From positions 1 through 59,096 of the IMG/VR virus record IMGVR_UViG_3300021185_003222: DNA of 59,096 bases; one strand, given 5' to 3'. This stretch comes from a virus (taxonomy: Duplodnaviria; Caudoviricetes). Below are positions 4,079-59,096 of the stretch, piece by piece (within the stretch, counting starts at the first letter, position 1; every line of letters starts with the position of its first letter). The notes under the pieces are model-generated. The model worked only from the letters and a program-made list of their open reading frames with translations. It ran no database searches and was not told where the DNA came from. A program made the position numbers and the translations under genes.

Positions 4079-4084
4079 AATAAT

Positions 4085-15787: not shown

Positions 15788-15808
15788 ATTTATATTTTAT
15801 TAATTTTT

Positions 15809-16546: not shown

Positions 16547-16557
16547 AATCTATAATT

Positions 16558-18528: not shown

Positions 18529-18530
18529 AA

Positions 18531-22166: not shown

Positions 22167-22168
22167 AC

Positions 22169-23374: not shown

Positions 23375-23377
23375 TTA

Positions 23378-24151: not shown

Positions 24152-24162
24152 TATAAATATTT

Positions 24163-24194
24163 TAAAAAAAAAGGGTAGAGTGAACTACCCTTTT
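24163..24194 (-). terminator. Intrinsic terminator after the capsid operon
   Basis: Minus strand AAAAGGGTAG-TTCACT-CTACCC followed by a long T run. Confidence 0.85.
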
Positions 24195-24199
24195 ATATA

Positions 24200-24224
24200 A
24201 TCACTTGTTATTTAAGTTTTTTCT
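24200..24224 (-). promoter_or_regulatory. Putative late promoter (variant copy) abutting the terminator
   Basis: AGAAAAAACTTAAATAACAAGTGAT-TATATA; shares the AAGTRAT element with sites at 33678 and 43719. Confidence 0.4.
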
Positions 24225-25011: not shown

Positions 25012-25037
25012 AGTATAATATAATATAATAATAAATA

Positions 25038-25061
25038 GCTAGAGCGCTTTCGCGCCCTAGC
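25038..25061 (-). terminator. GC-rich hairpin (GAAA loop) after the capsid gene; leaky terminator or mRNA stabiliser
   Basis: Minus strand GCTAGGGCGC-GAAA-GCGCTCTAGC followed by TATTTATT. Confidence 0.75.
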
Positions 25062-25086
25062 ATAAATTTAGTTAAACCTAACTTCG

Positions 25087-26529: not shown

Positions 26530-26555
26530 AATTATAAGTTTTAATTGTTATTTAT

Positions 26556-27698: not shown

Positions 27699-27724
27699 AA
27701 TATAATATAATAGTTAATATAAAA

Positions 27725-46833: not shown

Positions 46834-48354
46834 TTAAGAGTCAACTTCAACTTTTTGAACAGCTAGTTCATAAGTGTCGTAACTAGCGACAGCCTCAGCG
46901 AATTTAACTTTTACTGTACTTGCAGTATCAGCACTCATTTCAGCCATAACTATTGTACCAGTGGAAGCTTCAAATAGGTTCATAACTAATTGTTTAGAAC
47001 TTAAACTATGCTCGAATGATAAAGTAGTGGAGTTTATACCTGAAGTTGCTTTACCATACCATTGTCTAGCTTTAATTTTAGCATCAACCTCAACATCAAA
47101 GTCACTAACCTGTGAGTGAGCAATAGATATATTTTGCTCACCTAAAGCAGTTATGATACCTTGCTTGTTTGCTGTAACATTAACAGTTTTACTAGCACTA
47201 CCAGCTGTTTGAGTGCTTGAACCTAGTTGATCATCTAAAGAAACAGCTCCAGCATTTACAACAAAGTTAGCATCATTAAAGCTAGCTATACCTTTTGTAG
47301 TAGTAGTAGCATCATTAAGCTGTAAGTTACTTTGAACAGCAACCCAATTAGCTTGACTTCCACCTGAAGCATAAGCTGTCTTACAAACGATCAAATCACC
47401 AGCTTCTAATGTAACAGGGAAACTTGCAGAGTTACCAGCAACTGTAACAACATAAGTATCACCTACTTCAGCTGAACTTGGTAGAGCACCACTAGCGTCA
47501 TAATTACCCTTAAAGTCCATTCCACTAGTAATGGCATTAGCAATAGCTGTATCCATTTGGCCTTTATTAACACCATCTGAATCTGCAGAACCAGTTTTAA
47601 CGTCTAATAATGCGAAACCGCCAAAATCAACATCAGCTTCAGCATCACCAAGGTTATTTAAATGTATGTCTCCTACAAGAACCTTACCATAGTTAGATGT
47701 CTGACCTGCGCCACCTTTAGCAATTGCTAGGTAATCTTTTCCTGCATCAACTGTTGTTTTATCAGCTAATTCACTTAAGTCAACGTCAAATTGAAGTTCA
47801 CCAGCTTGATCACCTGTTATATCTACTAAAGAACCAGCTACAAAATCAAGTGTATTATCTATAATATTTGCTACATCTTCTGTTCCATCAACATTTATTT
47901 TTAAAGTTCCCTTTGAAGTATCAGTCCATGGTACATTTACGTACATCTTCTCACCGGATAATTGTACAGCATAGTTTCTACCTGATGAAACATATCCAAT
48001 TTGAACACCACCTCTTTCACCACTAGCTGCTAAAGGTAGTGTGTAAGTTGTATCTGTCCAAGGAACGTTAACGTATGCTTTATTACTACCATCAAGTTCT
48101 ACAGCGTAGTTCTTTCCAGTATCAGTATAACCGATCTTAATACCACCTAAATCAGATGATGTTGCAGCGCTTAAGCTAAATGATTGGTCATTTAACGTTT
48201 TCCACGCTGACCCGTTGTAATATTTTAGATCAGTTCCATCTACAAATAATCTACCATTTGTCAAACTTGACGTTGGTAAAGTTCCAGTCTCGATAACGAG
48301 GCCGCTTATTGCATTTGAAGCTAAATCTAAATTTTGTAAAAATTTAATTGCCAT
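46834..48354 (-). CDS. Tail fibre protein with two GG.(K/Q)IGY...NYAV.L...YVNVPWTDT repeats
   Basis: Internal repeats; FKGNYDAS, GDTYVVTVAG, DATTTTKGIASF fibre modules. Confidence 0.75.
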   Translation of the reverse strand: MAIKFLQNLDLASNAISGLVIETGTLPTSSLTNGRLFVDGTDLKYYNGSAWKTLNDQSFSLSAATSSDLGGIKIGYTDTGKNYAVELDGSNKAYVNVPWTDTTYTLPLAASGERGGVQIGYVSSGRNYAVQLSGEKMYVNVPWTDTSKGTLKINVDGTEDVANIIDNTLDFVAGSLVDITGDQAGELQFDVDLSELADKTTVDAGKDYLAIAKGGAGQTSNYGKVLVGDIHLNNLGDAEADVDFGGFALLDVKTGSADSDGVNKGQMDTAIANAITSGMDFKGNYDASGALPSSAEVGDTYVVTVAGNSASFPVTLEAGDLIVCKTAYASGGSQANWVAVQSNLQLNDATTTTKGIASFNDANFVVNAGAVSLDDQLGSSTQTAGSASKTVNVTANKQGIITALGEQNISIAHSQVSDFDVEVDAKIKARQWYGKATSGINSTTLSFEHSLSSKQLVMNLFEASTGTIVMAEMSADTASTVKVKFAEAVASYDTYELAVQKVEVDS

Positions 48355-48374
48355 TTTTTTTGTTTTTGTTTTTA

Positions 48375-48914
48375 TTAGTTAAGATACGCAGTACCAGCAA
48401 TAGCCTCGCTGAAAGTTAATTGTATTGCGTTTGCATTGGTAAATGTTAGTTCACCAAATATTTCTTCTCCTGCACTGCTTATAACAGTTACTGAAGGGTA
48501 TTTACCTAGATTATGAGTTATACTCCAAACAGTGTTAGTTCCATTTGAATGTGTAAAAGTATCAGAAGTCACATTGACCACACCACTTACTAGCGATGCT
48601 TTAATATTACCAGTAAAGTTGATAACATCTGCATCAGACTTTATTTCAGTTCCACTATCTTCTACACTTATAGAACCTCCTCCTGATTTAGCTATTAAGT
48701 CACTATCAGTTATGCCGTCTTTAAACCAGTACTCTGTTAAAGTACTACCTACTACAAGAGCAACGGTAAGTCCTTTATATCTATAACTGGCATCTAAGTA
48801 TGACGTAGCCGCAGACTTAGCTGCAGCTATATCAGCTCCCGAATAAGGCCCATACTTCGCATCCGCAGGGGCGGTTGTTTTAGCGAGTACGTTATCACTT
48901 AGATTTATAGCCAT
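48375..48914 (-). CDS. Fibre-associated adaptor protein
   Basis: N-terminal about 77 aa paralogous to 48919..50256; C-terminal WSITHNLGKYPSVTV domain. Confidence 0.65.
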   Translation of the reverse strand: MAINLSDNVLAKTTAPADAKYGPYSGADIAAAKSAATSYLDASYRYKGLTVALVVGSTLTEYWFKDGITDSDLIAKSGGGSISVEDSGTEIKSDADVINFTGNIKASLVSGVVNVTSDTFTHSNGTNTVWSITHNLGKYPSVTVISSAGEEIFGELTFTNANAIQLTFSEAIAGTAYLN

Positions 48915-48918
48915 GTTA

Positions 48919-50256
48919 TTAAGATTCTTTTATTTGAACATCATTAATTGTTGTAACTTTTTGAGCTACGTATACTTTATAGTTTTTAGTCCAATAACCA
49001 TCTTCAGATGCAATTGATTTTACAGATCCTGCAGCAAACAAATCTGTTGAGTTACTACCTATGTTACCATTGTTAGTAGCGTCAACATACCATTTTGTTT
49101 TATTAGCAAATCCTTCAGGTATCGCAAACCAAACCCATTCACCTGAAGCACTAAAGCTCATTGATAGTGTTCCAGAAGCATTTTTTACTTGCTTACTGAC
49201 ATAAGTACCACCTTCGATCAATGCTTCAACTTGAGCAGCTGTTTGCTGAGAAGAAGACTTACCATAATAATAAGGCCAATATCCATATCTTGTAGAAACT
49301 GAAGATGTTACAGTTCTAGCTGATTGTGGAGAATTTACTCCTGTTCCTGCAGATCTTGTATCGTCAGTTCCTTTATTATCTTTTTTAGCTAAACCAGCAC
49401 CAACTGTAGCTTTAGCTCTATATTGAAATACAGATCTAGTGCCAGTTGAAGGGGCTGGAACTTGATATGAGTCTTGAGTAACAGCAAGAGTTCTACCTGC
49501 GTTAGGATTGTTAGGGTTGTTAAAGCCAAACTGATCTGGAACATTTGTTGGAGTTGTAGCTGAACCAGCACCTGTAGCTAGGTTACTATAGCCAGCGCTA
49601 TTTAAGTTAGCCTCGATTGTCACATTTGATATTGCACCTGCGTCATTTTTAACACCAGTTAAAGATGAGGTTGGAGAAATTGTTGAACCGATTTCTTGAC
49701 TAGTAGCAAAACCACTTAAACTTAATGCTGATGTAGGTAGTGTATATGTAGGTAATTGAGTAGGAAATAATATAGTTTCCATCAATGTAACCATATTTAA
49801 ATCTTTTAATGCGGATGCTTTAGTTCCAGAAGAAACCCCACCGACTGAAGTACCTACTTCTAGGTCATCATCTACAGCTGAGTTAAATGTTGTATCTATT
49901 GTAACACCATCTGTTCCAGCGACAGCTGTTGCTTTTACTCCGCTCACGAAGTCTATTTTATCTGTAGTAGCTTCAATTGTAGTACCGTCACTAGCAACTT
50001 CAAGATCACTGCCGCCACCTTGTGATTTTAGAACTAAATTAGAATCAGTTACACCGCCTTGAAACCAGTATTCAACAATATTGCTTGATCCAACGATCAA
50101 ACCTACTGTTAAACCTTCATATCTATAAGAAGCTTGTAGGTAAGTTGTAGCTGCTGATTTTGCAGCTGCTAAGTCTGCTCCTGTATATGGTCCGTACTTA
50201 GCGTCACCCGGAGCTGTGGTTTTCGCTAATATGTTATCACTTAAATTTATTGCCAT
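48919..50256 (-). CDS. Fibre-associated structural protein
   Basis: Shares N-terminus with 48375..48914 and C-terminal two-thirds with 50260..51660. Confidence 0.65.
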   Translation of the reverse strand: MAINLSDNILAKTTAPGDAKYGPYTGADLAAAKSAATTYLQASYRYEGLTVGLIVGSSNIVEYWFQGGVTDSNLVLKSQGGGSDLEVASDGTTIEATTDKIDFVSGVKATAVAGTDGVTIDTTFNSAVDDDLEVGTSVGGVSSGTKASALKDLNMVTLMETILFPTQLPTYTLPTSALSLSGFATSQEIGSTISPTSSLTGVKNDAGAISNVTIEANLNSAGYSNLATGAGSATTPTNVPDQFGFNNPNNPNAGRTLAVTQDSYQVPAPSTGTRSVFQYRAKATVGAGLAKKDNKGTDDTRSAGTGVNSPQSARTVTSSVSTRYGYWPYYYGKSSSQQTAAQVEALIEGGTYVSKQVKNASGTLSMSFSASGEWVWFAIPEGFANKTKWYVDATNNGNIGSNSTDLFAAGSVKSIASEDGYWTKNYKVYVAQKVTTINDVQIKES

Positions 50257-50259
50257 GAC

Positions 50260-51660
50260 TTATGAAATTGTTGCGTTAGTTATTGTTGTTACTTTAGTGG
50301 CGATATATATTTTGTAATCTACCTCCCACAAATTATCTTTTGATTTTATTGTAAAGTTTGTTGGTAAAGGAAACAAATCATCAGACTGCTGTCCTATAGT
50401 ACCATTGTTTAATGCCGTAGCATACCAAGCTGTTTTATTGGAAAATTTATTATAAGTTAAAAACCAGCACCATTCACCATCAGCATTGAAATTCATTGAC
50501 AAGCTTCCAGAGCTATTAGCAACCACCTTGTTAACAGAAGAGTCTCCAGCTATTATTAAGTCTTTTATTTGCTGAGTTGTTAGTTGAGATGATGATTTAC
50601 CGTAGAAGTATGGATAATACCCGGTAATTGTTCTGTTATTAGAACTTTTATTATTTTGAGCTGCTTGAGGAGCAGAGGAGCTGCCTACAGTAGGGGTTCT
50701 AGTATCATAAACACCCTTGTTATTTTTCAATGCTAGGCCAGACCCATAGTCACCTTCTCCAGAATATGTTGTAGTTGTGCTAGTAGCGTTGCCAGTTGGC
50801 GCAGGTACAATGTAACTACTAGTAACATATGACGTGCTATAAGTTTTATTAGGGTTATTGTCATTGTCGAAGCCAAATTGTTGAGGAAGCTCCGTTATGG
50901 TTGCAACAGTTGGAGAGGTTGTTTGTATTAATTGAGTAGAACCTCTTAGTATTTTTAATCTTGTAAACGCTCCTGCGTCTTTTTTAGTGCCTAAAAGCGT
51001 TAAAGTTGGATTAACAGTCGACCCTATCTCTTTTATTCCTGTAACCGTGCTTGATAAAACTAAAGTAGCTGGCTTATATTGCGGTAAAACAGTAGGAAAC
51101 AGTAAAGTATCCCACATTTGCACTAAATTCATATCTTTTATTCCAGATACCTTAGTGCCAGCATCAAAACCGCCAATTGTAGAGGCCATTTCCGTGTCAG
51201 TGCCCAAGCTAGTGTTGTATACAGCATTTAAATCCGCTTGAGTTCCATCAACTCCAACAGATAATCCACTTTTAAAGTTTAATGAAGTAGCTTCTGCTAT
51301 TTTTTGTACGTCATCTTCTTTAATAGATATGCTCCCACCACCACTTGTAGGGTCGATGTATGTTAATCCACTAGCGTCTGCGTTGACAGCTAGTAATTGA
51401 TTAGCGTTTCCTATAGTAGCTAAGCCTGTTCCGCCTAAAGTAGTGGGAATTACATCATTAATGCTTATGTTGATGTCTCCAGTGGCTTTGTCTACCGCTA
51501 AAGGAGATGTAGCTGTGATCTTGTCTACTACATCAATGGCTTCTCTAACACTACTTATAGTTATTTTCTTAGTTTTTTTCTTATCTGCTGTATCACTAAT
51601 GATCAGTAGGTCAGTTAAACTAGGTAACGCTTTAGTTTTATAAGTATATATTATAGCCAT
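50260..51660 (-). CDS. Fibre-associated structural protein (proximal)
   Basis: N-terminus resembles that of 43747..45348; C-terminus paralogous to 48919..50256. Confidence 0.65.
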   Translation of the reverse strand: MAIIYTYKTKALPSLTDLLIISDTADKKKTKKITISSVREAIDVVDKITATSPLAVDKATGDINISINDVIPTTLGGTGLATIGNANQLLAVNADASGLTYIDPTSGGGSISIKEDDVQKIAEATSLNFKSGLSVGVDGTQADLNAVYNTSLGTDTEMASTIGGFDAGTKVSGIKDMNLVQMWDTLLFPTVLPQYKPATLVLSSTVTGIKEIGSTVNPTLTLLGTKKDAGAFTRLKILRGSTQLIQTTSPTVATITELPQQFGFDNDNNPNKTYSTSYVTSSYIVPAPTGNATSTTTTYSGEGDYGSGLALKNNKGVYDTRTPTVGSSSAPQAAQNNKSSNNRTITGYYPYFYGKSSSQLTTQQIKDLIIAGDSSVNKVVANSSGSLSMNFNADGEWCWFLTYNKFSNKTAWYATALNNGTIGQQSDDLFPLPTNFTIKSKDNLWEVDYKIYIATKVTTITNATIS

Positions 51661-51920
51661 TATCTCTTTTTACGTTTAGTTTTTTTGCTTTCTCTTTTAG
51701 TTCCCTTACCATCATTACCTCTGTTGGCTTTTATGGATTCAAATCTTTCATCATCGTGATCGTAGTCTTTTCCCTTTAACCATGATATACCGTATTTTTT
51801 AATAGCTTCCCTTCTCTTCTTTTGATTCTCTGCCTTCTTCTTTCTTCTTGCAGGAGTCTTTGCCGCTGCTAGATCTCTTTTCTTTTTAGCAGCTCTTGCT
51901 TTAGCTGATAGTATACTCAT
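51660..51920 (-). CDS. Small basic protein with degenerate HNH-like motif
   Basis: GKDYDH......S...NRG; first gene of the late arm. Confidence 0.45.
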   Translation of the reverse strand: MSILSAKARAAKKKRDLAAAKTPARRKKKAENQKKRREAIKKYGISWLKGKDYDHDDERFESIKANRGNDGKGTKRESKKTKRKKR

Positions 51921-51949
51921 GTTTTAAGTTTTAGTCTTATTTATACTAT

Positions 51950-51974
51950 ATCACAGAAAAACACTCGTTTTTAC
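51950..51974 (-). promoter_or_regulatory. Putative late promoter heading the structural arm
   Basis: GTAAAAACGAGTGTTTTTCTGTGAT, about 30 nt upstream of the first late gene. Confidence 0.5.
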
Positions 51975-52008
51975 CCTATAGTACTAACATAAATAAATTA
52001 TGGGTAGG

Positions 52009-52054
52009 GTGACATTAGCCCCTTACTAGGCTAGGTCTAAGACCCTATTGTCAC
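52009..52054. other. Branched inverted-repeat element in the divergent intergenic region
   Basis: GTGACA...TGTCAC outer stem enclosing TAGCC/GGCTA and GGTC/GACC hairpins. Confidence 0.55.
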
Positions 52055-52100
52055 ACTGCTGTAAGATATATATAATATAAGTACTGTACCCCTAACCCCC

Positions 52101-52175
52101 TGATTGTCAACTAATTACAAATTGGTTTTTATATTGCCCAGTCCACTTAACCATTTGATTATCAACGATTTACAA
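52101..52175 (+). repeat. Two imperfect 20-nt direct repeats with IHF-site-like cores
   Basis: TGATTGTCAACTAATTACAA (52101) and TGATTATCAACGATTTACAA (52156); the second matches WATCAANNNNTTR exactly. Confidence 0.6.
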
Positions 52176-52246
52176 TAACCTTTTCCTTTCCTTCATCACA
52201 ATAAATCTTAATTTGTCTACAACTATTTACCTTTTACTTATTATAT

Positions 52247-52277
52247 ACAGATTTAATACAAGATATATAAGATAATA
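52247..52277 (+). promoter_or_regulatory. Early promoter-like motif copy 1
   Basis: ACAGATTTAATAC-N10-AGATAATA. Confidence 0.7.
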
Positions 52278-52304
52278 TATACGAATCTAAATTAAATAAA
52301 CAAT

Positions 52305-52553
52305 ATGACTATCAATTTAAAATATAATAAACTCAATTCAATTCTAAATAACAATTCTGAAATACATTACATAATTGACTCAGACAATTTCTTCGACGAG
52401 AATAATATCAACATGTCTCAATTCAATAATAATAAATTTATATTATTTGAATACACAACTAACTGGCCTGAAACTATTCAACTATTAAAACAAAATAACA
52501 TAAACTATTCTATTCATACTGACGAACTAGAATTACAATATATAATAATCTAA
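52305..52553 (+). CDS. Early hypothetical protein (N/I-rich)
   Basis: 82-aa ORF directly after motif copy 1. Confidence 0.55.
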   Translation: MTINLKYNKLNSILNNNSEIHYIIDSDNFFDENNINMSQFNNNKFILFEYTTNWPETIQLLKQNNINYSIHTDELELQYIII

Positions 52554-52667
52554 TTAACTAATATATCACTCAATTATAATAAACATCTGATATTCAGGGT
52601 AAATTATAGAGAAGTCGCGTGTAGTACCTACTAACTAAAATAAACTAATAAACAAACATACACTCAC

Positions 52668-52698
52668 ACAAACTAAATACAAAACCACTCAGATAATA
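52668..52698 (+). promoter_or_regulatory. Early promoter-like motif copy 2
   Basis: ACAAACTAAATAC-N10-AGATAATA. Confidence 0.8.
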
Positions 52699-52724
52699 TA
52701 TATAACTAAAATAAAATATATACT

Positions 52725-52955
52725 ATGACATTTAAAATAACTAACATAACATTAAAAACTTTTACATCAAATAATAAAAACTATAATAATATTAACTACA
52801 CTATTTTTATTAAACAACTAAATCAAACAATTAATATTACTAAACAATATATTAACTTTAAAACTAAAAACTATTTAATTGACATAATTGACTCAATAAA
52901 TAATCAAGACAATTTAAATAATCAACTAATAAACTTTATAAATAACAAATATTAA
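52725..52955 (+). CDS. Early hypothetical protein (nearly G-free coding strand)
   Basis: 76-aa ORF bracketed by motif copies 2 and 3. Confidence 0.5.
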   Translation: MTFKITNITLKTFTSNNKNYNNINYTIFIKQLNQTINITKQYINFKTKNYLIDIIDSINNQDNLNNQLINFINNKY

Positions 52956-52957
52956 AT

Positions 52958-52988
52958 ACAAACTAAATACAAACAGCAACAGATAATA
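52958..52988 (+). promoter_or_regulatory. Early promoter-like motif copy 3
   Basis: ACAAACTAAATAC-N10-AGATAATA. Confidence 0.8.
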
Positions 52989-53029
52989 TAAACGTAAACT
53001 AAATAACAAATAAATAAAATAAAATAAAT

Positions 53030-53266
53030 ATGAAAACTAATAACTTAACTACTAAAAGATTTGTAATCAGAAAATCATTACTTAATACTAATACAGTAAT
53101 CACTTTCACTAACAAAAAAGATATAACATTCACTTATAATCACGATGAAATTTATACTAAGTTTCAAACTAAATTTGACGAAATGAATTGTTTTCAAAAG
53201 TATAAATCTTATACAAATAGTAATACTGTTCCAAAATTCTGCAGAGAATTAAGTACTCAGTCTTAA
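53030..53266 (+). CDS. Early hypothetical protein
   Basis: 78 aa (TKRFVIRKSL...CFQKYKSYTNSNTVPKF). Confidence 0.65.
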   Translation: MKTNNLTTKRFVIRKSLLNTNTVITFTNKKDITFTYNHDEIYTKFQTKFDEMNCFQKYKSYTNSNTVPKFCRELSTQS

Positions 53267-53331
53267 AACTAAAAGTCGACGTTGATAGTAATACTTTAAC
53301 GACTATAAATAACACGAACATATTACTCAGC

Positions 53332-53362
53332 ACAAACTAAATACTACAAAGTGTAGATAATA
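53332..53362 (+). promoter_or_regulatory. Early promoter-like motif copy 4
   Basis: ACAAACTAAATAC-N10-AGATAATA. Confidence 0.8.
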
Positions 53363-53388
53363 ATATAAACTAAATAAATATAATAACT

Positions 53389-53592
53389 ATGTCTTATAAT
53401 CCAAACAATCCAAGTAATTGGTCGTGGTCAAAAGCTTTTGCAGAAATGGACAAAACTGTTCATGAAGCTGAAATGACTCAACAATGTATAAATCACATAC
53501 TAGATTATCCTGGTGAAGCTAATGGTGTCTTTATGTCACTAAACAAAACTCAACAAGATGATGTTTACGAAATACTAAATGAAATACTATGA
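53389..53592 (+). CDS. Early hypothetical protein
   Basis: 67-aa ORF after motif copy 4. Confidence 0.6.
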   Translation: MSYNPNNPSNWSWSKAFAEMDKTVHEAEMTQQCINHILDYPGEANGVFMSLNKTQQDDVYEILNEIL

Positions 53593-53726
53593 ATAATTTA
53601 AATACTACAATAGACAAAGTAGCAATGTCAGAATTTGACACGCACTACTATCAACTTGGTGATAACGAGAAACAATGGTGTCACGATGAAATGATTAATA
53701 ACAAGAAATGGTTAAAAAGAATATGA
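53589..53726 (+). CDS. Early hypothetical protein (45 aa)
   Basis: Read manually: MNNLNTTIDKVAMSEFDTHYYQLGDNEKQWCHDEMINNKKWLKRI; ATGA overlaps at both ends. Confidence 0.55.
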   Translation: MNNLNTTIDKVAMSEFDTHYYQLGDNEKQWCHDEMINNKKWLKRI

Positions 53727-53980
53727 ATAAAATAATACTAACAATTGGAATGGCTAGTTCGTTACTAGTCTTACCAGCAAAAAAAGATGGTACAATAGTA
53801 AACTCAGTAGAACAAAATAAATATCTACTAAGTGAAGCTTTAAATAATATCCAGAATATGAGAGAATGGATGCTAAGTGATATAGACAATGATAATATAA
53901 CTACAGATCTAGGTGAATTTTATATTGAAAATCTTAATGAAGTTGAAGATATATTAATTGAAATTGCTAATACAAATTAA
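53723..53980 (+). CDS. Early protein with N-terminal hydrophobic signal/anchor
   Basis: MNKIILTIGMASSLLVL..., acidic C-terminus; ATGA coupling favours start 53723. Confidence 0.55.
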   Translation: MNKIILTIGMASSLLVLPAKKDGTIVNSVEQNKYLLSEALNNIQNMREWMLSDIDNDNITTDLGEFYIENLNEVEDILIEIANTN

Positions 53981-54002
53981 ATACAATCACTAATAGATAA
54001 TA
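53972..54002 (+). promoter_or_regulatory. Early promoter-like motif copy 5
   Basis: ACAAATTAAATAC-N10-AGATAATA. Confidence 0.8.
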
Positions 54003-54007
54003 TAATC

Positions 54008-54259
54008 ATGAAATATATACAAACAGATAACTTAACAGTTATAGATTACGGTGACGACACAGGTAAACTACTAATATATAATAGAACTAAATCACCTTAC
54101 GGTTACAACCCAAGAAATCTTATTGTATCTTTATTTGGCAGACCACTAAAAGAAATTACGTACAACTATGTACAAAAACAAGTAGACAAAGTCTATTCTA
54201 CTTTTAACTATAACGAAATAGACGAACTAATAAATAAAATAAATAATGAAAATAAATAA
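54008..54259 (+). CDS. Early hypothetical protein
   Basis: 83-aa ORF starting 5 nt after motif copy 5. Confidence 0.6.
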   Translation: MKYIQTDNLTVIDYGDDTGKLLIYNRTKSPYGYNPRNLIVSLFGRPLKEITYNYVQKQVDKVYSTFNYNEIDELINKINNENK

Positions 54260-54386
54260 TATAGCTCCAATAGTATTCGGAATACTAATGATAACACTAA
54301 TAGCACTTGCAACATCTTGTACAACTCAAGAAAAAATGGTAGGTAATTATTATAATCACTCTAAATATTGTCCAGCTTATAACTAA
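54246..54386 (+). CDS. Small lipoprotein (46 aa)
   Basis: Read manually: MKINNIAPIVFGILMITLIALATSCTTQEKMVGNYYNHSKYCPAYN; hydrophobic signal and ATSC lipobox. Confidence 0.6.
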   Translation: MKINNIAPIVFGILMITLIALATSCTTQEKMVGNYYNHSKYCPAYN

Positions 54387-54387
54387 T

Positions 54388-54621
54388 ATGAAACTAACTA
54401 ACGAAGAAAAAGACGAAATTACTTGGAAAGTAGTTGACTCACTATATGAAAAATTAGCTAACGAGCTAGAATATGAACTACAAGAACATGAAAACTTTCC
54501 AGAAACTAATGATGCTTATATGGATTTATTCAATGAAATGACTATAAAAATAGTAAAGTATATGAGAAGTGAGCTGTTCTCTCCAGGAACAAGTGAGGAT
54601 TTAGAACTTTATAAAAGATAA
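54388..54621 (+). CDS. Early acidic hypothetical protein
   Basis: 77-aa ORF. Confidence 0.6.
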   Translation: MKLTNEEKDEITWKVVDSLYEKLANELEYELQEHENFPETNDAYMDLFNEMTIKIVKYMRSELFSPGTSEDLELYKR

Positions 54622-54624
54622 AAT

Positions 54625-54795
54625 ATGACAGAACAACAAGCAATTGAAGCAATCGCTAATGATATACAGGATGGTATCTACGGTTGGACACAGAAATGTG
54701 GAACAGAGTGGCAGAAGTGGACATACTCACTAAATCTAGCTAGAAAAATATATGAAGGTGAATTAATAATAGATTTAAGTATAGACAATGAATAG
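54625..54795 (+). CDS. Early hypothetical protein (56 aa)
   Basis: Read manually: MTEQQAIEAIANDIQDGIYGWTQKCGTEWQKWTYSLNLARKIYEGELIIDLSIDNE. Confidence 0.55.
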   Translation: MTEQQAIEAIANDIQDGIYGWTQKCGTEWQKWTYSLNLARKIYEGELIIDLSIDNE

Positions 54796-54970
54796 AGATA
54801 GAGAATGGGATTTTATGGAAGAGCATAGAGAAGAAGAAAAGTCTTTGCTAGCAACAGTAGGAATAGTAGTCAGAGAACTAACTATAAAGTGTCCTAATGA
54901 TCAAGAACTAGGTAAAGAAGTAAGAGAACTAATTAAAAAATACAAATTAAATACAAATACTAACAGATAA
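54788..54970 (+). CDS. Early hypothetical protein
   Basis: 60 aa with PNDQELGKEVR motif. Confidence 0.6.
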   Translation: MNRDREWDFMEEHREEEKSLLATVGIVVRELTIKCPNDQELGKEVRELIKKYKLNTNTNR

Positions 54971-54972
54971 TA
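54942..54972 (+). promoter_or_regulatory. Early promoter-like motif copy 6
   Basis: ACAAATTAAATAC-N10-AGATAATA. Confidence 0.8.
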
Positions 54973-54977
54973 TATAT

Positions 54978-55121
54978 ATGAAAACAATTAAATTTTACGC
55001 AAGTAACAGATCACTAATCAGATTAGATGGCAAATTACTAAAAGGTTACACTATAGATAGTATACCAGACGAATATACAAGCTGGTTCAACTACAAAGGC
55101 TTAACTTACATAACAAGTTGA
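54978..55121 (+). CDS. Early hypothetical protein (47 aa)
   Basis: Read manually: MKTIKFYASNRSLIRLDGKLLKGYTIDSIPDEYTSWFNYKGLTYITS. Confidence 0.55.
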   Translation: MKTIKFYASNRSLIRLDGKLLKGYTIDSIPDEYTSWFNYKGLTYITS

Positions 55122-55131
55122 CAAACAACTG

Positions 55132-55179
55132 ACGAATTATAGCTCATACTTAACCTGTATGGGCTTTTCGTGGTATGAA
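55132..55179 (+). promoter_or_regulatory. Structured leader element, short copy
   Basis: AGCTCATAC/GTATGGGCT stem then TTTCGTGGT-ATG; 19-nt identity with 58081-58099. Confidence 0.6.
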
Positions 55180-55618
55180 ATGTAACCACAATATTCCACA
55201 AGCAAGATTAGATCTTGGCTATACTGAGTGTGTTGATTGCTCAACAGTAGAAAAACTCGGTTGTATCGACACTATTCATCACAAAACAGGCAACACTATT
55301 CAAGTAATGTCACGTGAAGATGCAGACAAAGCTAGTAAGCTCACTCAAAGAGCAGGCTTTGGCATACTAAGATCCATGGCAGGTGGTTCAAGTCAACGTA
55401 AACCTAAGTATAAATACGATGGATGCTCAACTACTTATGTAGGTAACGACAATATGTTCGAGCAAGTAGGTAAAACTTACATCGATTTCTTAGATGTTGA
55501 CAAAGAAATTGCAGAGCGCTATCTCGATCGAGCGCTAAACAATCTAGAAATATCTCAATTACAATATAATAAGATAAAACTACTTTGTAACAGACTAAAT
55601 ACGATCACTATTAGATAA
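55175..55618 (+). CDS. Protein with N-terminal DksA/TraR-like zinc-finger fragment
   Basis: CNHNIPQARLDLGYTECVDC matches the C..IP..RL.......C..C pattern. Confidence 0.55.
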   Translation: MKCNHNIPQARLDLGYTECVDCSTVEKLGCIDTIHHKTGNTIQVMSREDADKASKLTQRAGFGILRSMAGGSSQRKPKYKYDGCSTTYVGNDNMFEQVGKTYIDFLDVDKEIAERYLDRALNNLEISQLQYNKIKLLCNRLNTITIR

Positions 55619-55620
55619 TA
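55590..55620 (+). promoter_or_regulatory. Early promoter-like motif copy 7
   Basis: ACAGACTAAATAC-N10-AGATAATA. Confidence 0.8.
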
Positions 55621-55633
55621 TATTAAATAATAT

Positions 55634-55792
55634 ATGAATAAAATAACAAAACAACTCGAAAACTTGTATTCTTGGACAAAATTCTATCAAGATCGAGGTA
55701 ATAAAGAAGCAATTAGAAAGTGTCAAACTGAAATAGCCCAGTTGAAAATGGCTTTTAACCAACTAAAATCTAACAAAAATGGCAAAAAATAG
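55634..55792 (+). CDS. Early hypothetical protein (52 aa)
   Basis: Read manually: MNKITKQLENLYSWTKFYQDRGNKEAIRKCQTEIAQLKMAFNQLKSNKNGKK. Confidence 0.55.
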   Translation: MNKITKQLENLYSWTKFYQDRGNKEAIRKCQTEIAQLKMAFNQLKSNKNGKK

Positions 55793-56171
55793 AACGCTAA
55801 ACGAAATTAGACAATCAAAAGAGTATCAACAAGCTGTTGAACTAAGTGATCAAGGCGGTAAGTATACTGTTCCAAGTAAAGGCCACGCTGCTGTAGCTTT
55901 AAAAGAATTAAAAGGTGAAAACTTTTATGAAAATCCTTTTTCTCATGCAGATGTAGACGAAACTGTTGAAACAATAGTAGAAAAGCTAGATGGTCACATG
56001 TATGACTTAATATTTCAAGCAGTTTGTGATGAAATGAATAATCACTATGTATTTGACTCAACAGAATACTTAACTCAAGCAGGTTTAGAACTATTTGAAG
56101 ACGAATGGTTCGAGTTTTATCATGAAAATCATGGTAGAATAATTAATAAACTACTAAAAAACTTAAAATAA
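55779..56171 (+). CDS. Early acidic hypothetical protein
   Basis: 130-aa ORF. Confidence 0.6.
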   Translation: MAKNRTLNEIRQSKEYQQAVELSDQGGKYTVPSKGHAAVALKELKGENFYENPFSHADVDETVETIVEKLDGHMYDLIFQAVCDEMNNHYVFDSTEYLTQAGLELFEDEWFEFYHENHGRIINKLLKNLK

Positions 56172-56365
56172 TGAAGAAATTTAACGGAATGGAGTCAAAT
56201 CTTATTATAGATGCGCTACAATTTTATGTAGCTCAAGTAGAAAAAGATATATTAGAATTAGAAAAAGAAGGTAAAACATCTATATTTGCACCTGGTTTTT
56301 ATACTATGATCTCAAAAGACTTGAAAGATAAAGTAAAATCTATGACTAAAAAAGCAAAAATATGA
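56171..56365 (+). CDS. Early hypothetical protein
   Basis: 64-aa ORF, coupled both sides. Confidence 0.6.
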   Translation: MKKFNGMESNLIIDALQFYVAQVEKDILELEKEGKTSIFAPGFYTMISKDLKDKVKSMTKKAKI

Positions 56366-56811
56366 ATTACGCTATATTTGACATGGATGATACTCTATGC
56401 ACTTTAGAGCATCGTAGAAACAAAGCGATGGAATCAGGTAGCATGAATTTTAATATATTATTTGATCCTAAGCTAGTTGAATACGACTTACCTGAAGATC
56501 ATGTAGTAGATTTAGCTCAAACACTAAAAATGTTTAATACTAAAATAATAGTAATGACAGCTAGGCCATATTATATGGATATAGCTACACGTAAGTGGTT
56601 GGTTAAGAACAACATACCTTTTGATCAATTAATAACTAAAGAAAAAAATAAAGTATTTCAAAAGTCTAGCTTATGGAAAGAGTCTAAATTACAAGAGCTA
56701 TTAGAAGATATTAGTATTGAACAAATAGTTTTATCTATTGATGACAATATGGATAATCAAGCTATGTTTGAATCTTATGGAATACCAATTTTTAATCCAC
56801 TATTACAATAA
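56362..56811 (+). CDS. HAD-family phosphatase (T4 PseT 3'-phosphatase-like)
   Basis: AIFDMDDTL, VMTARP, WK, SIDDN = HAD motifs I-IV. Confidence 0.8.
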   Translation: MNYAIFDMDDTLCTLEHRRNKAMESGSMNFNILFDPKLVEYDLPEDHVVDLAQTLKMFNTKIIVMTARPYYMDIATRKWLVKNNIPFDQLITKEKNKVFQKSSLWKESKLQELLEDISIEQIVLSIDDNMDNQAMFESYGIPIFNPLLQ

Positions 56812-56813
56812 TT

Positions 56814-56844
56814 ACAAACAAAATACAAACACTATAAGATAATA
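56814..56844 (+). promoter_or_regulatory. Early promoter-like motif copy 8
   Basis: ACAAACAAAATAC-N10-AGATAATA. Confidence 0.8.
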
Positions 56845-56849
56845 TAAAT

Positions 56850-57071
56850 ATGATATACGACAGACTTAAACCACATATCAAAGCCAATATGAAAGAAAAT
56901 GCTAAAGAGTATAAAACTGTAAACTGGCTACTTGATACACTAAAACAAAAACACAGTTATTCTGACTTAACTATCGACGAAATAAGATCTATATGTACAT
57001 TTGGCGATGTATGGTATCACGATCTAACTCAAAGAGACATTATATGGGGTGATTGGCTAACAAATAAATAA
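56850..57071 (+). CDS. Early hypothetical protein
   Basis: 73-aa ORF starting 5 nt after motif copy 8. Confidence 0.6.
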   Translation: MIYDRLKPHIKANMKENAKEYKTVNWLLDTLKQKHSYSDLTIDEIRSICTFGDVWYHDLTQRDIIWGDWLTNK

Positions 57072-57072
57072 A

Positions 57073-57420
57073 ATGACAGAAGAAAAACTAGCAATAGAAA
57101 CACTCACTGCACTAGGTTGCAAAGATGTTACAACAAATAGACAAAAGAAAAACGGTACAACTTGTTTTGAATTACCTACAGGTGACATTGTTTCTGAACA
57201 TAAAACGGGTTATATTAGAAAATATATGACTTGGAAAGGTAAGAAAATAACCTGTTATCAACTAAATCCACAATACAAAACTCCATATAAAATGATTTGG
57301 TCAAATGGCGAGCTGTATGAAGGAACTCATAACAGAAGAATGTTGATATTTAATAGAGCTGAAAGACTAAAAAGACTTGTATTATATACTATTAAGCAAA
57401 TAAATCAAGCTAATGGATAA
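57073..57420 (+). CDS. Early hypothetical protein
   Basis: 115 aa (DVTTNRQKKNGT...GYIR...CYQLN). Confidence 0.65.
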   Translation: MTEEKLAIETLTALGCKDVTTNRQKKNGTTCFELPTGDIVSEHKTGYIRKYMTWKGKKITCYQLNPQYKTPYKMIWSNGELYEGTHNRRMLIFNRAERLKRLVLYTIKQINQANG

Positions 57421-57505
57421 TGACAAAAGAGACTTAGCGCTAATAATGGCAGTTTTAGCGCTAATGCTATACACAATTTTACTAACTGTCTCAATATTAA
57501 ATTAA
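57413..57505 (+). CDS. 30-aa single-transmembrane peptide
   Basis: Read manually: MDNDKRDLALIMAVLALMLYTILLTVSILN; fills the gap. Confidence 0.45.
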   Translation: MDNDKRDLALIMAVLALMLYTILLTVSILN

Positions 57506-57515
57506 ATTAACTAAC

Positions 57516-57965
57516 ATGGAACAAAAAGAACCAACACAAGAAAAAATAATAGAAGCTGTAAAAAAGTATTACGGCTTAAAAATAGATGAAAACGCTTATA
57601 TGAACGCAGACGTATATGCATACGAAGAAACAACCGCAGATGGTTATTCTGTATATGTTGTAACAGGCGATATGAATAGTGTATGCATAGCTGAAGATGT
57701 GTATTATTATGAAAGTGATATACCGTCAGCAATTATGGAATATGTAGAGTATGCTAATGGCCAATGTACAATATATGCAGATCAATACTTCTTAGATGAT
57801 ATATACTTTGACGATATGTTACTAGAATCATTTCAAGAAGTAGCAGACAAGATATATGACGAAATTATGAATGAAGACAGTGACTACAACTTTGACATGG
57901 CAGAACTGCAATGGTTAAAAGAAGAATTTACTGAATCAGAAGAGATTAATCAGACTGTTAGTTAG
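57516..57965 (+). CDS. Highly acidic, aromatic-rich early protein
   Basis: 149 aa dominated by D/E/Y. Confidence 0.65.
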   Translation: MEQKEPTQEKIIEAVKKYYGLKIDENAYMNADVYAYEETTADGYSVYVVTGDMNSVCIAEDVYYYESDIPSAIMEYVEYANGQCTIYADQYFLDDIYFDDMLLESFQEVADKIYDEIMNEDSDYNFDMAELQWLKEEFTESEEINQTVS

Positions 57966-57983
57966 TTAATAGTAGTTTAGTTT

Positions 57984-58099
57984 CCACGAACATGGTGCCT
58001 TACAATTTAAAATAAGGTCAGCTCGTATTAAACTGTCGTTTTAAATACTCAGAGAGGAGATATTAAAACAGGTTTGGTACGGGCTTTTCGTGGTATGAA
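57984..58099 (+). promoter_or_regulatory. Structured leader element, long copy (three-way junction)
   Basis: CCACGAA/TTCGTGG closing stem, GCCTTA/TAAGGT hairpin, long AGCTCGTA.../...TACGGGCT hairpin, then ATG at 58095. Confidence 0.6.
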
Positions 58100-58310
58100 T
58101 AATATAAATATGATGAAAGCGTTTATGTTGTTAGGAGATCTATCAACTAAACAAGGTGACGAGCTATCAGACATGGCCGTCAAATACCAAGAAAGAATAG
58201 CTTTTGCTACAATGAGAGCTAGTATACCTGATTGGCAACCACCAAGTAATTGGGATAGTCTAAGTAATGAAGAAAAAAACAAAAGACTTAAAAAGTTACA
58301 GTCATTATGA
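58095..58310 (+). CDS. Early hypothetical protein
   Basis: In frame with ORF 58074..58310; ATG 58095 favoured by analogy with 55175; P.NWD.LS.EEK..RL motif. Confidence 0.6.
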   Translation: MNNINMMKAFMLLGDLSTKQGDELSDMAVKYQERIAFATMRASIPDWQPPSNWDSLSNEEKNKRLKKLQSL

Positions 58311-58417
58311 GTTGCAGTTACTGTAACGAACCACTTTCTTTTGAACAAGAAATATACTTTGAAAAACATGTACAAGAAATGCCTTTATGCACACAATGTA
58401 CACTTTTCAATACGTAA
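58307..58417 (+). CDS. 36-aa C4 zinc-finger peptide
   Basis: Read manually: MSCSYCNEPLSFEQEIYFEKHVQEMPLCTQCTLFNT; ATGA overlap. Confidence 0.55.
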   Translation: MSCSYCNEPLSFEQEIYFEKHVQEMPLCTQCTLFNT

Positions 58418-58419
58418 TT

Positions 58420-58450
58420 ACAAACTAAATACAACAACTAACGGATAATA
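58420..58450 (+). promoter_or_regulatory. Early promoter-like motif copy 9
   Basis: ACAAACTAAATAC-N10-GGATAATA. Confidence 0.78.
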
Positions 58451-58455
58451 TTAAT

Positions 58456-58770
58456 ATGAAACAAGACGAAATAGAAAAATTAGCTCAACTATTATTTGAT
58501 AAAATAATGGAAAAGCAAGAACAAGCCGATATAGAATATGCTGACCAAATTCAACAGTTATATAATAACGGTTATGTTATAGAAAAATCTAACAAAAAAG
58601 ACGACATGGAAGGCTTAAACAGTGAGGAAAGACTAGTTGGTGAACTAGCTAGATTACAAACTATCATGATGATATTTGAAGATAAAGAAGAATACGAAAA
58701 AGCAGCTATGATACAGAAGAAAATAGAAATAATAAATAGAAAATTAAATGACGGATCAGGTAAATATTAA
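58456..58770 (+). CDS. Protein with C-terminal UVR (UvrB/C-type) coiled-coil motif
   Basis: FEDKEEYEKAAMIQKKIE resembles the EDYE.AA..RD.I UVR motif. Confidence 0.55.
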   Translation: MKQDEIEKLAQLLFDKIMEKQEQADIEYADQIQQLYNNGYVIEKSNKKDDMEGLNSEERLVGELARLQTIMMIFEDKEEYEKAAMIQKKIEIINRKLNDGSGKY

Positions 58771-59096
58771 AGCTATGCTAGCGCATAAGTATAATGAAGA
58801 TAAAGCAGATTACCCTGCTTATATACAACCAAAACTAGACGGCGTACGTTGTCTATTTACTGCCAATGGCGCGTTCTCTCGTGCTAATAACCAGTTTATG
58901 AACGTAGATCACATAACAAAAGATTTAAAGCCTGTATTTGACAGATACCCTACGCTAATTCTTGATGGCGAACTATACAATCACGGACTAAAAGATGACT
59001 TTGAAAAGATTATATCTCTTGTAAAGAAGAAAAAACCAACAGATGATGACAAAGCAGAAGCTGCAGAACTAGTACAATATCATATATATGATGTAG
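58748..59096 (+). CDS. ATP-dependent DNA ligase (3'-truncated)
   Basis: Read manually: AMLAHKY...IQPKLDGVRC (KxDGxR)...SR...ILDGELY...YHIYDV; runs off the window. Confidence 0.9.
   Translation, partial: MTDQVNIKAMLAHKYNEDKADYPAYIQPKLDGVRCLFTANGAFSRANNQFMNVDHITKDLKPVFDRYPTLILDGELYNHGLKDDFEKIISLVKKKKPTDDDKAEAAELVQYHIYDV

Follow-up and report, generated by a model that had tools for sequence, protein, structure and literature searches.

Repeated sigma70-like elements as putative promoters and exchange points in the early arm of a podophage related to Flavobacteriia phages

The window analysed here (59,096 nucleotides; IMG/VR record IMGVR_UViG_3300021185_003222) represents nearly the whole genome of a 59-kb podophage whose relatives are Flavobacteriia phages. 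Its early arm carries nine copies of a bipartite motif, which begins with ACA and ends with GATAATA (Table 1). Each copy is located on the + strand, points in the same direction as the genes and lies just upstream of an ORF start. The degenerate pattern yielded eight exact + strand matches, compared with 0.00 in 100 dinucleotide shuffles. Allowing up to three mismatches added one copy at 52247, in which motif position 8 has T instead of A, so that the total is nine versus 0.19 expected. The spacer between both halves comprises exactly 10 nt in 9/9 copies, and in copies 1 to 9 the motif is separated from the next ATG by 27, 26, 41, 26, 5, 5, 13, 5 and 5 nt. The initial annotation had described the nine + strand copies, the constant spacer and distances of 5-41 nt, four of them 5 nt, and all of this was reproduced. 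A weight matrix derived from all nine copies scored these with 33.1-51.7 bits, the next + strand site with 13.6 and the best - strand site with 6.9 bits. Due to this drop, no copy is assigned to positions 1-4000 or to the late arm, for which none had been reported before. Conservation extends beyond the motif, about 9 nt upstream and up to 8 nt downstream.

Table 1. Motif copies of the early arm with predicted transcription starts and adjoining features
Copy	Position	Strand	Match	Predicted start	ATG	Remarks
1	52247-52277	+	weakest (1 mismatch), 38.5 bits	52283	52305	first of the early arm
2	52668-52698	+	exact	52704	52725	
3	52958-52988	+	exact	52994		precedes 78-aa gene 53030-53266, conserved in 5/5 relatives compared
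4	53332-53362	+	exact	53368	53389	53368 is also a recombination joint among strain variants
5	53972-54002	+	exact	54008 (A of ATG)	54008	predicted leaderless; TAA of upstream gene (53978-53980) within motif
6	54942-54972	+	exact	54978 (A of ATG)	54978	predicted leaderless; TAA of upstream gene (54968-54970) within GATAATA
7	55590-55620	+	exact	55626	55634	TAA of upstream gene (55616-55618) within GATAATA
8	56814-56844	+	exact	56850 (A of ATG)	56850	predicted leaderless; 5' edge adjoins HAD phosphatase gene 56362-56811, missing from 6 relatives
9	58420-58450	+	exact	58456 (A of ATG)	58456	predicted leaderless; 5' edge adjoins variable segment 58309-58417

The arrangement of the conserved letters is that of a sigma70-family promoter. 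With +1 predicted 36 nt downstream of the base that opens the motif, where a pyrimidine-purine step forms -1/+1, the invariant GATAAT occupies -12 to -7 and is followed by AT. It thus has the A at -11 and the T at -7 of a sigma70-family -10 hexamer and ends about 7 nt before the start. The upstream box, tT-ACAAAcT-AAATACGA, spans about -38 to -22; a weakly conserved stretch of 8 nt lies between this box and the purine (R) at -13. Within the box, the conserved CAAAcT (-35 to -30) stands exactly 17 nt before GATAAT at all sites, in the range of 16-18 nt typical for upstream elements of this family. The earlier statement that the motif does not match sigma70 spacing is therefore wrong. A TTGACA-like -35 hexamer is not present at -35 to -30, where the consensus is CAAAcT, and a sigma70 consensus scan listed 0/9 sites. 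We also determined the conservation at 114 sites, counting positions outside the letters used to select them. C at -35 was found in 99%, T at -5 in 80% and a purine at the predicted +1 in 98%; of the two bases following AAATAC, G occurred in 81% and A in 93%.

The next ATG lies exactly on the predicted +1 at 4/9 sites of the window, at 18/103 sites and at 33/77 sites of the relatives. In the 77-site set the 5 nt ahead of such an ATG comprise 12 different sequences of one fixed length. At the 85 sites with the ATG elsewhere, +1 was a purine in 84 and -1 a pyrimidine in 65. Since the ATG coincides with the predicted start at four copies of the window, the respective mRNAs would be leaderless, as judged from the spacing. 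The initial annotation had called them near-leaderless; the 5-nt distance fits leaderless mRNAs and is the commonest spacing among the relatives. The remaining five copies would give leaders of 8-36 nt. A few ORFs, however, seem to begin ahead of the predicted +1: in 6/103 sites an ATG is found at motif position 14, and at least two of these have no ATG at +1. In front of g070, g093 and g110 of the phage phi14:2, a host-type -7 box is followed after 2-4 nt by the ATG, indicating that short or absent leaders may occur in flavophages. Shine-Dalgarno-like 4-mers precede 1/29 late and 0/25 early genes of our phage, a scarcity in keeping with a Bacteroidota host. The motif would predict leaderless translation in a phylum without Shine-Dalgarno pairing.

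A start further upstream, at the G of GATAATA, would be expected if the motif were the promoter of a phage-encoded single-subunit (T7-like) or unrecognised RNA polymerase, and every mRNA would then have a leader of at least 12 nt. In the clade consensus AATACGA is followed by CACTA and, about 11 nt past the AATAC block, by G, blocks which we take to resemble T7-class promoters. This G is invariant despite the AT-rich surroundings, and no host-type promoter is visible across the whole genome. Furthermore, two RNA-library contigs begin at this G or one base before it (54965, 56838); stored contigs cannot show transcript starts, and these ends fit the alternative start and, just as well, a break of the graph at the variable spacer. 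T7-class promoters are, however, contiguous blocks of about 23 nt, while the motif consists of two blocks over about 40 nt, separated by the weak 8-nt stretch. Counted from the G, this conservation would reach to +13, and the purine found there in 98% of the sites would have no explanation, whereas a distance between -10 element and start would predict just such a 5-nt stretch ahead of the ATG, constant in length but free in sequence. PF00940 had no match at E <= 1 in the window and five relatives (four of them at least 90% complete according to CheckV), a weak negative as control genomes gave none either. T7 motif B was absent from ORFs of at least 120 aa with the exception of one loose match. 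We regard such a polymerase as quite improbable.

The motif is not restricted to this phage. The strict half-pattern occurs in at least 120 IMG/VR stretches, and the portal protein of our phage was detected on 5/5 motif-bearing contigs tested (58-65% identity). In 13 genomes 106/106 matrix matches were on one strand, that of the early arm; in 10 records this applies to 66/67 strict matches, the reversed pattern giving 0. Strand, position, conservation in the clade and absence from the late arm support the proposal of early promoters made initially. The motif is common to a large uncultured marine clade of Flavobacteriia phages, in which it would form one class of promoter. As such it would help to annotate early genes and to place their true start codons in thousands of metagenomic contigs. 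No transcription signals of this group were found in the literature consulted, including the parts of PMC5335546 and PMC8776804 reached by keyword look-ups. In related phages the corresponding place is occupied by repeats of quite another kind. MW202828, the closest complete relative, contains 16 copies of a palindrome in place of the motif, whereas in phi38:1 AAACACTATCAAA is repeated about a dozen times.

Housekeeping (sigma-A) promoters of Bacteroidota follow the consensus TTG ... TAnnTTTG, with TTG at about -33 and TAnnTTTG at about -7. The motif resembles them in its bipartite structure, in the short distance between downstream box and ATG and in the A at -11 and T at -7, but TTG is missing at -33, as is TTTG from the downstream box. 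Neither element was detected at these positions in 9/9 sites, in agreement with the mismatch to this promoter noted initially. TAnnTTTG is not enriched in the window, too (51 and 37 observed vs 45.6 and 32.2 expected). Lacking a TTGACA-like hexamer or a TTG at -33 as well as TAnnTTTG, the motif is unlikely to be read by sigma-A unaided. The host-type consensus was seen upstream of g070, g075, g108 and g110 of phi14:2; the mapping of these genes is described in bioRxiv 10.1101/2020.03.07.982082, which names genes of this phage with mapped middle promoters.

We assign a probability of about 0.5 to the reading that the nine copies are early-arm promoters of sigma70-family layout, used by the multisubunit RNA polymerase of the host, and at the same time exchange points; promoter function, start, leaderless state, polymerase and timing are deduced from sequence patterns. 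The host polymerase is the most likely enzyme, and recognition would depend on something other than the housekeeping sigma-A consensus. We favour a host-borne determinant present at injection, which may be an alternative sigma factor or sigma-A aided by the long upstream box. Each promoter would head a short transcription unit. The motif poses the question of which factor recognises a promoter of sigma70-like layout inside a cell of Bacteroidota.

Exact copies were also detected in front of genes on large chromosomal contigs of Flavobacteriaceae, which suggests that the host can read the motif. In three cases on host contigs the ATG likewise coincides with +1, and in one copy GATAAT is replaced by TATAAT. 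Host genomes contain one or two copies each, and as the counts with up to three mismatches equal those of the reversed-pattern control, no host regulon is visible. If read by the host, the motif would be a compact expression part for Flavobacteriia.

Alternatively, the same promoter layout might require a factor made by the phage, either a highly diverged sigma or a MotA/AsiA-type activator. It would be injected, possibly as part of a giant 3365-aa protein which is probably borne by the virion, or synthesized from an unrecognised first transcript. The restriction of the motif to the clade, with other repeats in MW202828 and phi38:1, is in line with this possibility, as is the lack of resemblance to both the host-type promoters of phi14:2 and TAnnTTTG. 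The early arm revealed no promoter of host type, so that nothing else is visible for making the first transcript. Two variable motif positions, -13 (p = 8e-10) and -23 (p = 1e-11), have the same base in all copies of a genome, while their states switch independently of early-arm relatedness, a pattern that fits a phage-borne or strain-specific reader. The giant protein, with a conserved 810-aa C-terminal domain, is moreover present throughout the clade, and tblastn matched its C-terminal third to no phage record, not even to MW202828.

However, HMM searches in six frames revealed no RNA polymerase or sigma domain in the phage, and Sigma70 r2, r4 and r4_2 gave no match at E <= 1; 26 early ORFs have no Pfam match at E <= 0.01. 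The domains recognised in the giant protein were exclusively of kinase and phosphatase type, and it showed no DFDxD motif, no polymerase motifs and no sigma-like segment. A sigma-like segment had been postulated initially and was recovered neither here nor by the six-frame HMMs. The profile of the conserved C-terminal domain had no solved-structure match by sequence. When phage proteins were scanned for alleles that follow the state of -13, nothing convincing emerged. With no polymerase or sigma domain found, the virion-delivered factor that the initial annotation considered necessary is unsupported, and the copies on Flavobacteriaceae contigs argue mildly against it and for readability by the host. 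We consider a phage-made factor possible though rather unlikely.

Known systems in which host polymerase is combined with a phage specificity factor are T4 middle (MotA/AsiA) and late (gp55) promoters as well as those of SPO1 gp28 and gp33/34. The motif shares with these classes the retained -10-like element, a phage-specific box replacing the -35 region and many near-identical copies within one temporal class, but no such factor was identified here. As those classes are middle or late, an earlier transcript makes the factor, whereas the motif already stands before the first genes of its arm. Early promoters of the N4 virion RNA polymerase are hairpins. The motif sites, in contrast, are unstructured without a short hairpin, 6/9 folding at 0 kcal/mol as single strands (z-scores -1.55 to +1.25). 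A giant, probably virion-borne protein of N4-like size beside the early arm and early genes without host-type promoters are features which our phage has in common with N4 and with the crAss-like phage phi14:2. Gp66 of the latter is a virion RNA polymerase, and the early transcripts of phi14:2 share no upstream motif according to bioRxiv 10.1101/2020.03.07.982082; polymerase motifs were not found in the giant protein of our phage. It is conceivable, and we think unlikely, that the clade redirects or bypasses Bacteroidota transcription from the first second by a virion-delivered factor of an unrecognised family, for instance the 810-aa domain, reading a sigma70-like promoter unusable by sigma-A. 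The host copies would then act as infection sensors, the single Flavobacteriaceae copies marking host or island genes that fire only upon injection by such a phage.

The second role proposed for the copies, exchange of modules, had been suggested initially as possible cassette shuffling, to be checked by comparing breakpoints with the motif positions. Breakpoint clusters of gene gain and loss are indeed enriched at the copies (11/52 vs 4.0 expected, p = 0.0017). Left ends of homology blocks fell on the nine motif starts in 25/62 cases vs 17/62 on 16 motif-less gene starts. The copies evolve in concert within genomes and, being near-identical, can serve as exchange points at which promoter-plus-gene modules would be gained, lost and reshuffled. 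Breakpoints and homogenisation would also be expected if the repeats were not promoters but recombinase or homing-type cassette sites, operators of a regulator or leader RNA signals. The host copies are located in variable surroundings, too, one of them near an integrase-family gene. Against this stand the orientation of the copies with the genes, directly upstream of ORF starts, and an internal geometry that is promoter-like down to the start dinucleotide. Moreover, neither hairpin or dyad symmetry nor an Rfam match was detected at the sites, no recombinase was found among the early ORFs, and a leaderless mRNA would not contain the motif at all. We regard a function other than that of a promoter as very improbable.

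Among known elements, putative promoters acting as exchange points are best compared with the PeSL of T4-type phages. In the sections of PMC2839356 and PMC4122927 considered, PeSL is described as a composite of a terminator stem-loop and a strong, sigma70-like early promoter read by E. coli sigma70. Numerous copies of it are interspersed with small non-essential ORFs, and insertions, deletions and replacements between related phages end at these repeats, which provide portable homology for modular shuffling. As far as these sections allow, the motif is similar: a presumed early promoter recurs between small, variable ORFs, and indel ends, an enrichment of breakpoints and concerted evolution are found at its copies. 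It differs from PeSL in that its sequence departs from the host housekeeping consensus and no copy adjoins a stem-loop or other terminator-like site, three copies even overlapping the end of the preceding gene. Promoter-mediated shuffling of modules, known in T4-type phages, would extend to an unrelated phage group. Marine samples contain this group very commonly: sequencing runs from 17 studies include the early region of our phage, and the conserved domain of the giant protein comprises 2577 clusters at 50% identity.

The record is linear (59,096 bp) and rated 94% complete. Its minus strand carries terminase, portal, virion protein, GroEL/GroES-like and holin genes and the gene of a giant protein of 3365 aa, and its plus strand has about 25 small ORFs and, after them, genes for ligase (interrupted by the ends of the record), MazG, DUF1064 and ribonucleotide reductase (Table). 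The frames at the two ends do not join directly, so that a few or more bases must be missing, which is consistent with the completeness rating. Portal and terminase matches were obtained in 87 phage records, all of them phages of Flavobacterium, Cellulophaga, Tenacibaculum or Maribacter plus one uncultured record, with identities of at most 50% (portal) and 64% (terminase). The early region is present in marine or seawater runs from 17 studies. Shine-Dalgarno-like 4-mers precede only 1 of 29 late and none of 25 early genes, and such a near-absence is typical of Bacteroidota.

Table. Coordinates of the motif copies and of further features
Feature	Record	Position	Strand	Remark
Motif copy 1	window	52247	+	27 nt from motif end to next ATG
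Motif copy 2	window	52668	+	26 nt
Motif copy 3	window	52958	+	41 nt
Motif copy 4	window	53332	+	26 nt
Motif copy 5	window	53972	+	5 nt
Motif copy 6	window	54942	+	5 nt
Motif copy 7	window	55590	+	13 nt
Motif copy 8	window	56814	+	5 nt
Motif copy 9	window	58420	+	5 nt
Opposite-strand motif copy	G319 (contig of L058)	10445	-	
Small-ORF (early) arm	window	52.3 kb to end, 1-3861	+	
Late arm	window	4.1-51.9 kb	-	
3365-aa protein	window	4161-14258	-	
HAD phosphatase gene	window	56362-56811		PNKP type
Segment absent or replaced in relatives	window	58309-58417		
Ligase N-terminal part, ATP-dependent	window	58748-59096		open frame at 3' record end
5'-open frame	window	1-847		ends in MazG
Variant joints in or at copies	window	53336, 53368, 53995, 54959, 58415-58418		RNA-library contigs
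Inverted repeat GTGACA ... TGTCAC	window	52009-52054		
TTGTCA-17-TATAAT	window	52048-52076		
GGGCTTTTCGTGGTATGAA, first occurrence, with preceding hairpin	window	55141-55179		next ATG 55175
GGGCTTTTCGTGGTATGAA, second occurrence	window	58081-58099		next ATG 58095
GTGAT(A/T)AT	window	24204, 20866	-	
GTGAT(A/T)AT	G002	44912		
GTGAT(A/T)AT	G004	15357		
GTGAT(A/T)AT	G005	33187, 49097		
Palindrome GTGTCGTTAACGACAC	MW202828.1 (L010)	739-15090 within L010 (43000-60850)	early	16 copies
AAACACTATCAAA	phi38:1 (L012)	11972-31820	-	about a dozen copies
Motif with secreted-protein gene	L182, L192, L199, L207			126 aa in L199; 20-nt leader

The early arm contains the repeated motif ACA(A/G)A(C/T)(T/A)AAATAC-N10-(A/G)GATAATA. 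The pattern matched exactly at eight sites and with one mismatch at a ninth, all on the plus strand between 52247 and 58450 and all with a spacer of 10 nt, while shuffles of the window gave no exact match and 0.19 matches at up to 3 mismatches. Scored with a weight matrix derived from them, the nine sites reached 33-52 bits; the next best scores within the window were 13.6 bits on the plus and 6.9 bits on the minus strand. Number, positions, strand, spacer and ATG distances of the copies are thus as described in the initial annotation. Scanning the window for Rfam families and tRNAs gave no match.

The motif is a character of the clade. A scan of IMG/VR with a strict half-pattern yielded at least 120 stretches, and the portal of our phage was found, at 58-65% identity, in all five motif-bearing contigs tested. 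Matrix scans of 13 genomes detected 106 sites, in each genome on a single strand and clustered in the small-ORF arm. In strict-pattern scans of ten records 66 of 67 matches were on the dominant strand, and the reversed pattern had no match in the same records. The sole opposite-strand copy found in any genome is located where the two arms meet, back to back with the first copy of the early arm, and faces the late arm. No repeat comparable to the motif was found in elemoA. From 34 sources with at least two matches each, 114 distinct sites were collected among the matches listed, and in this set the consensus, beyond the letters fixed by selection, is tT-ACAAAcT-AAATAC-GA-N8-R-GATAATA-T-A..T-R.

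With position 0 set at the initial A of AAATAC, GATAAT occupies positions 17-22 in these 114 sites; 98% of the sites have a purine at position 29, and position 28 is mostly T, again among the matches listed. The first ORF-opening ATG lies exactly at position 29 in 18 of 103 listed sites, in 33/77 sites of closer relatives and in four of the nine copies of the window. Where the ATG follows further downstream, 84/85 of the matches listed still have a purine at position 29 and 65/85 a pyrimidine at position 28. Where orthologous genes follow, the stretch from GATAATA to the ATG has 12 different sequences, always of 5 nt. A distance that stays constant while the sequence varies freely would be expected if the polymerase sets the spacing from -10 element to start, and in that case copies with the 5-nt gap would give leaderless mRNAs starting with AUG. 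The motif would often give leaderless messages.

With position 29 as the putative +1, GATAAT falls at -12 to -7, the variable purine at -13 and CAAAcT at -35 to -30, with 17 nt between the two elements. Given this start site, the layout is that of a sigma70-family promoter, so the initial annotation is wrong in denying a match to sigma70 spacing. The letters of the -35 element are not TTGACA-like. Among other promoter types, an N4-type hairpin was rejected by folding of the sites, and sigma-28, sigma-54 and ECF readings were dropped due to misfits in spacing or letters against their consensus sequences. A sigma70 consensus scan overall gave 38 sites, fewer than the 46.7 in shuffles. Its best site in the divergent region, TTGTCA-17-TATAAT, was considered as a possible first promoter; it is near consensus, but its -10 part is not kept in relatives and it overlaps the right arm of a conserved inverted repeat.

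The same annotation had set the motif apart from the Bacteroidota housekeeping promoter, and this holds, as neither TTG nor TAnnTTTG occurs in the nine sites. TAnnTTTG is not enriched in the window, and one of ten late-arm gaps contains it, 82 nt from the ATG. The phi14:2 paper (bioRxiv 10.1101/2020.03.07.982082) names genes with mapped middle promoters and calls their motif 'tripartite'; upstream of the genes named there we found TTG ... TAnnTTTG. The promoters of the host phylum itself look different from the motif. We conclude that the motif is real and biologically meaningful, a clade-wide and sharply defined putative early promoter of sigma70-like geometry.

Concerning the question of who reads the motif, a search of six frames of the window at E <= 1 revealed neither a T7-like polymerase domain nor the sigma domains r2, r4 and r4_2, and 26 early ORFs had no Pfam match at E <= 0.01; one other early ORF is the PNKP-type HAD phosphatase gene. 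PF00940 was found in none of five relatives (four at least 90% complete), a weak negative since the control genomes do not contain this family. We favour, with a probability of about 0.5, the reading that the host polymerase recognizes the motif without any phage protein. A phage polymerase of unrecognised kind that starts at the G of GATAATA seems improbable, and non-promoter roles of the repeats take up the rest.

The initial annotation had proposed a virion-delivered factor. This idea is still a live minority reading, and we regard the need for any phage-supplied factor as rather unlikely. Several observations speak for a phage-borne or strain-specific reader. MW202828, the closest complete relative outside the clade, has a repeated signal of its own at the corresponding place in its genome, a perfect 16-nt palindrome 15-25 nt before ORF starts, and in Cellulophaga phage phi38:1 another element lies a few nt upstream of early-arm ORF starts. 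Furthermore, the copies of one genome share the same base at -13 and likewise at -23 (A or G in both cases; chi-square p = 8e-10 and 1e-11, respectively), and G-type genomes are no closer to each other than to A-type ones. To look for a phage protein that reads the base at -13, we compared five G-type with seven A-type genomes (G003, being mixed, was omitted) for association with 28 protein clusters and the C-terminal domain of the giant protein, both by presence/absence and column by column. Among these 12 genomes no protein had more than 7 segregating columns, almost all of them with mixed residues; in the giant domain the number was 4 of 501. The phi38:1 transcriptome paper does not describe the phi38:1 and MW202828 elements at keyword level. 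The same ACACTATC as in the phi38:1 element stands immediately before two ATGs in MW202828.

In favour of a host reader, the exact 31-nt pattern is present on large chromosomal contigs (up to 1.39 Mb) of Flavobacteriaceae or Bacteroidetes. Three assemblies have it in front of an orthologous gene for a small secreted protein, with differing neighbours; homologues of the gene behind one host copy occur in only 2 of 301 family genomes sampled, in the second without the motif. L166, L168 and L172 share a flank (TAAATTG.AA.TT) and the motif before different, unrelated ORFs, whose ATG follows after exactly 5 nt, at position 29 again. One extra host copy has TATAAT instead of GATAAT. The portal of the phage is absent from four of five assemblies tested (three with large-contig copies), hence the copies there are not whole phages. 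Against a host reader, host genomes contain only one or two copies each, near-matches in five of them show no excess over the reversed-pattern control, and the neighbours of the L168 locus are an M48-TPR peptidase, a trypsin-like peptidase and an integrase-family gene; the host copies may therefore be imported cassettes. One of the assemblies with the secreted-protein gene has a second motif copy 18 kb away, the gene is cut short in L192, and phage G005 has a distant homologue in its late arm. A 'Flavobacteriaceae MAG' contig, CBDICL010000005.1 (117,301 bp; L179/L195), has two identical motif sites. With five portal homologues on four contigs, its assembly seems to contain several phages of the group, possibly a two-copy assembly of one; the contig is not host DNA.

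The early region is a mosaic whose seams are marked by the copies. Compared with the early arm of the window, those of eleven closer relatives (73-95% nucleotide identity where blocks are shared) are mosaics, and 31 of 117 homology-block ends lie within 15 nt of a copy (9.0 expected from the covered area). For distinct breakpoint clusters the ratio is 11/52 against 4.0 expected (p = 0.0017), an enrichment which agrees with the suggestion that gene gain and loss breakpoints coincide with the motif. Of the left ends (n=62), 25 were located at the nine motif starts compared to 17 in windows of equal size ahead of 16 gene starts that lack the motif. The HAD phosphatase gene, whose right edge adjoins copy 8, is absent in six relatives; the segment directly before copy 9 is absent in four and replaced by 600 nt in one. 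Strain variants from four RNA-library runs, picked via the early arm as assembled contigs (48000-59096), have joints in or at copies, and in one contig the end of copy 5 is fused to sequence downstream of copy 4. Joints at copies fit an exchange between copies, and they also fit a simple selection for whole transcription units. The PeSL of T4-type phages (PMC2839356, PMC4122927) are the nearest described system, from which the motif copies differ in lacking a stem-loop and a host consensus.

Phage-specific early promoters and promoter-mediated shuffling are already known kinds; new are the motif sequence, the host phylum and the question of who reads the motif. We found no description of promoters of this phage group in the literature searched, and at keyword level 'promoter' does not occur in the main texts of PMC5335546 and PMC8776804.

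The giant protein, presumably a virion-borne 'polyvalent' protein, contains a Zeta-toxin/AAA_33-type kinase (residues 2298-2483) with HAD-like motifs on both sides, and an HExxH near residue 1189. A DFDxD motif is absent, and a relaxed pattern for polymerase motif B gave a single loose match (residue 3100). Nothing found ties this protein to transcription. Within the clade, conservation is confined to the last ~810 residues (41-50% identity in five relatives), while the first ~2200 are not kept even in close relatives, which looks like a swappable N-terminal domain array. The conserved C-terminal domain recurs in 3535 proteins at E <= 0.001 among 8000 candidates examined (2577 clusters at 50% identity); its profile matched no solved structure by sequence. 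For a 466-aa ORF, an Atlas look-up gave, apart from its likely own cluster, tail-fibre-like leads only (<0.9).

In the late arm, 8-mer enrichment gave only a weak GTGAT(A/T)AT signal. It follows an A-rich run a short way upstream of several late genes, and at some sites an ATG comes 3-6 nt after it; it may be a late promoter sharing the GATAAT -10 element without the early upstream box. The arms of the inverted repeat in the divergent region are separated by ~35 nt, and GC-rich runs come after it. Its position and arms are kept in G003, G004 and G005, and it may represent an operator, an origin or a packaging signal.

The 19-nt direct repeat GGGCTTTTCGTGGTATGAA ends, at both occurrences, in the ATG of the next ORF, and neither ORF has the motif. 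The stretch is not in the list of the terminator scan. A short hairpin precedes the first occurrence (55141-55149 pairs with 57-65), and the second has the same stem halves ~50 nt apart. A terminator or a 5' stabilising stem could be present. Exactly this stretch varies among strain variants, with joints from 57988/58027 to 58076.
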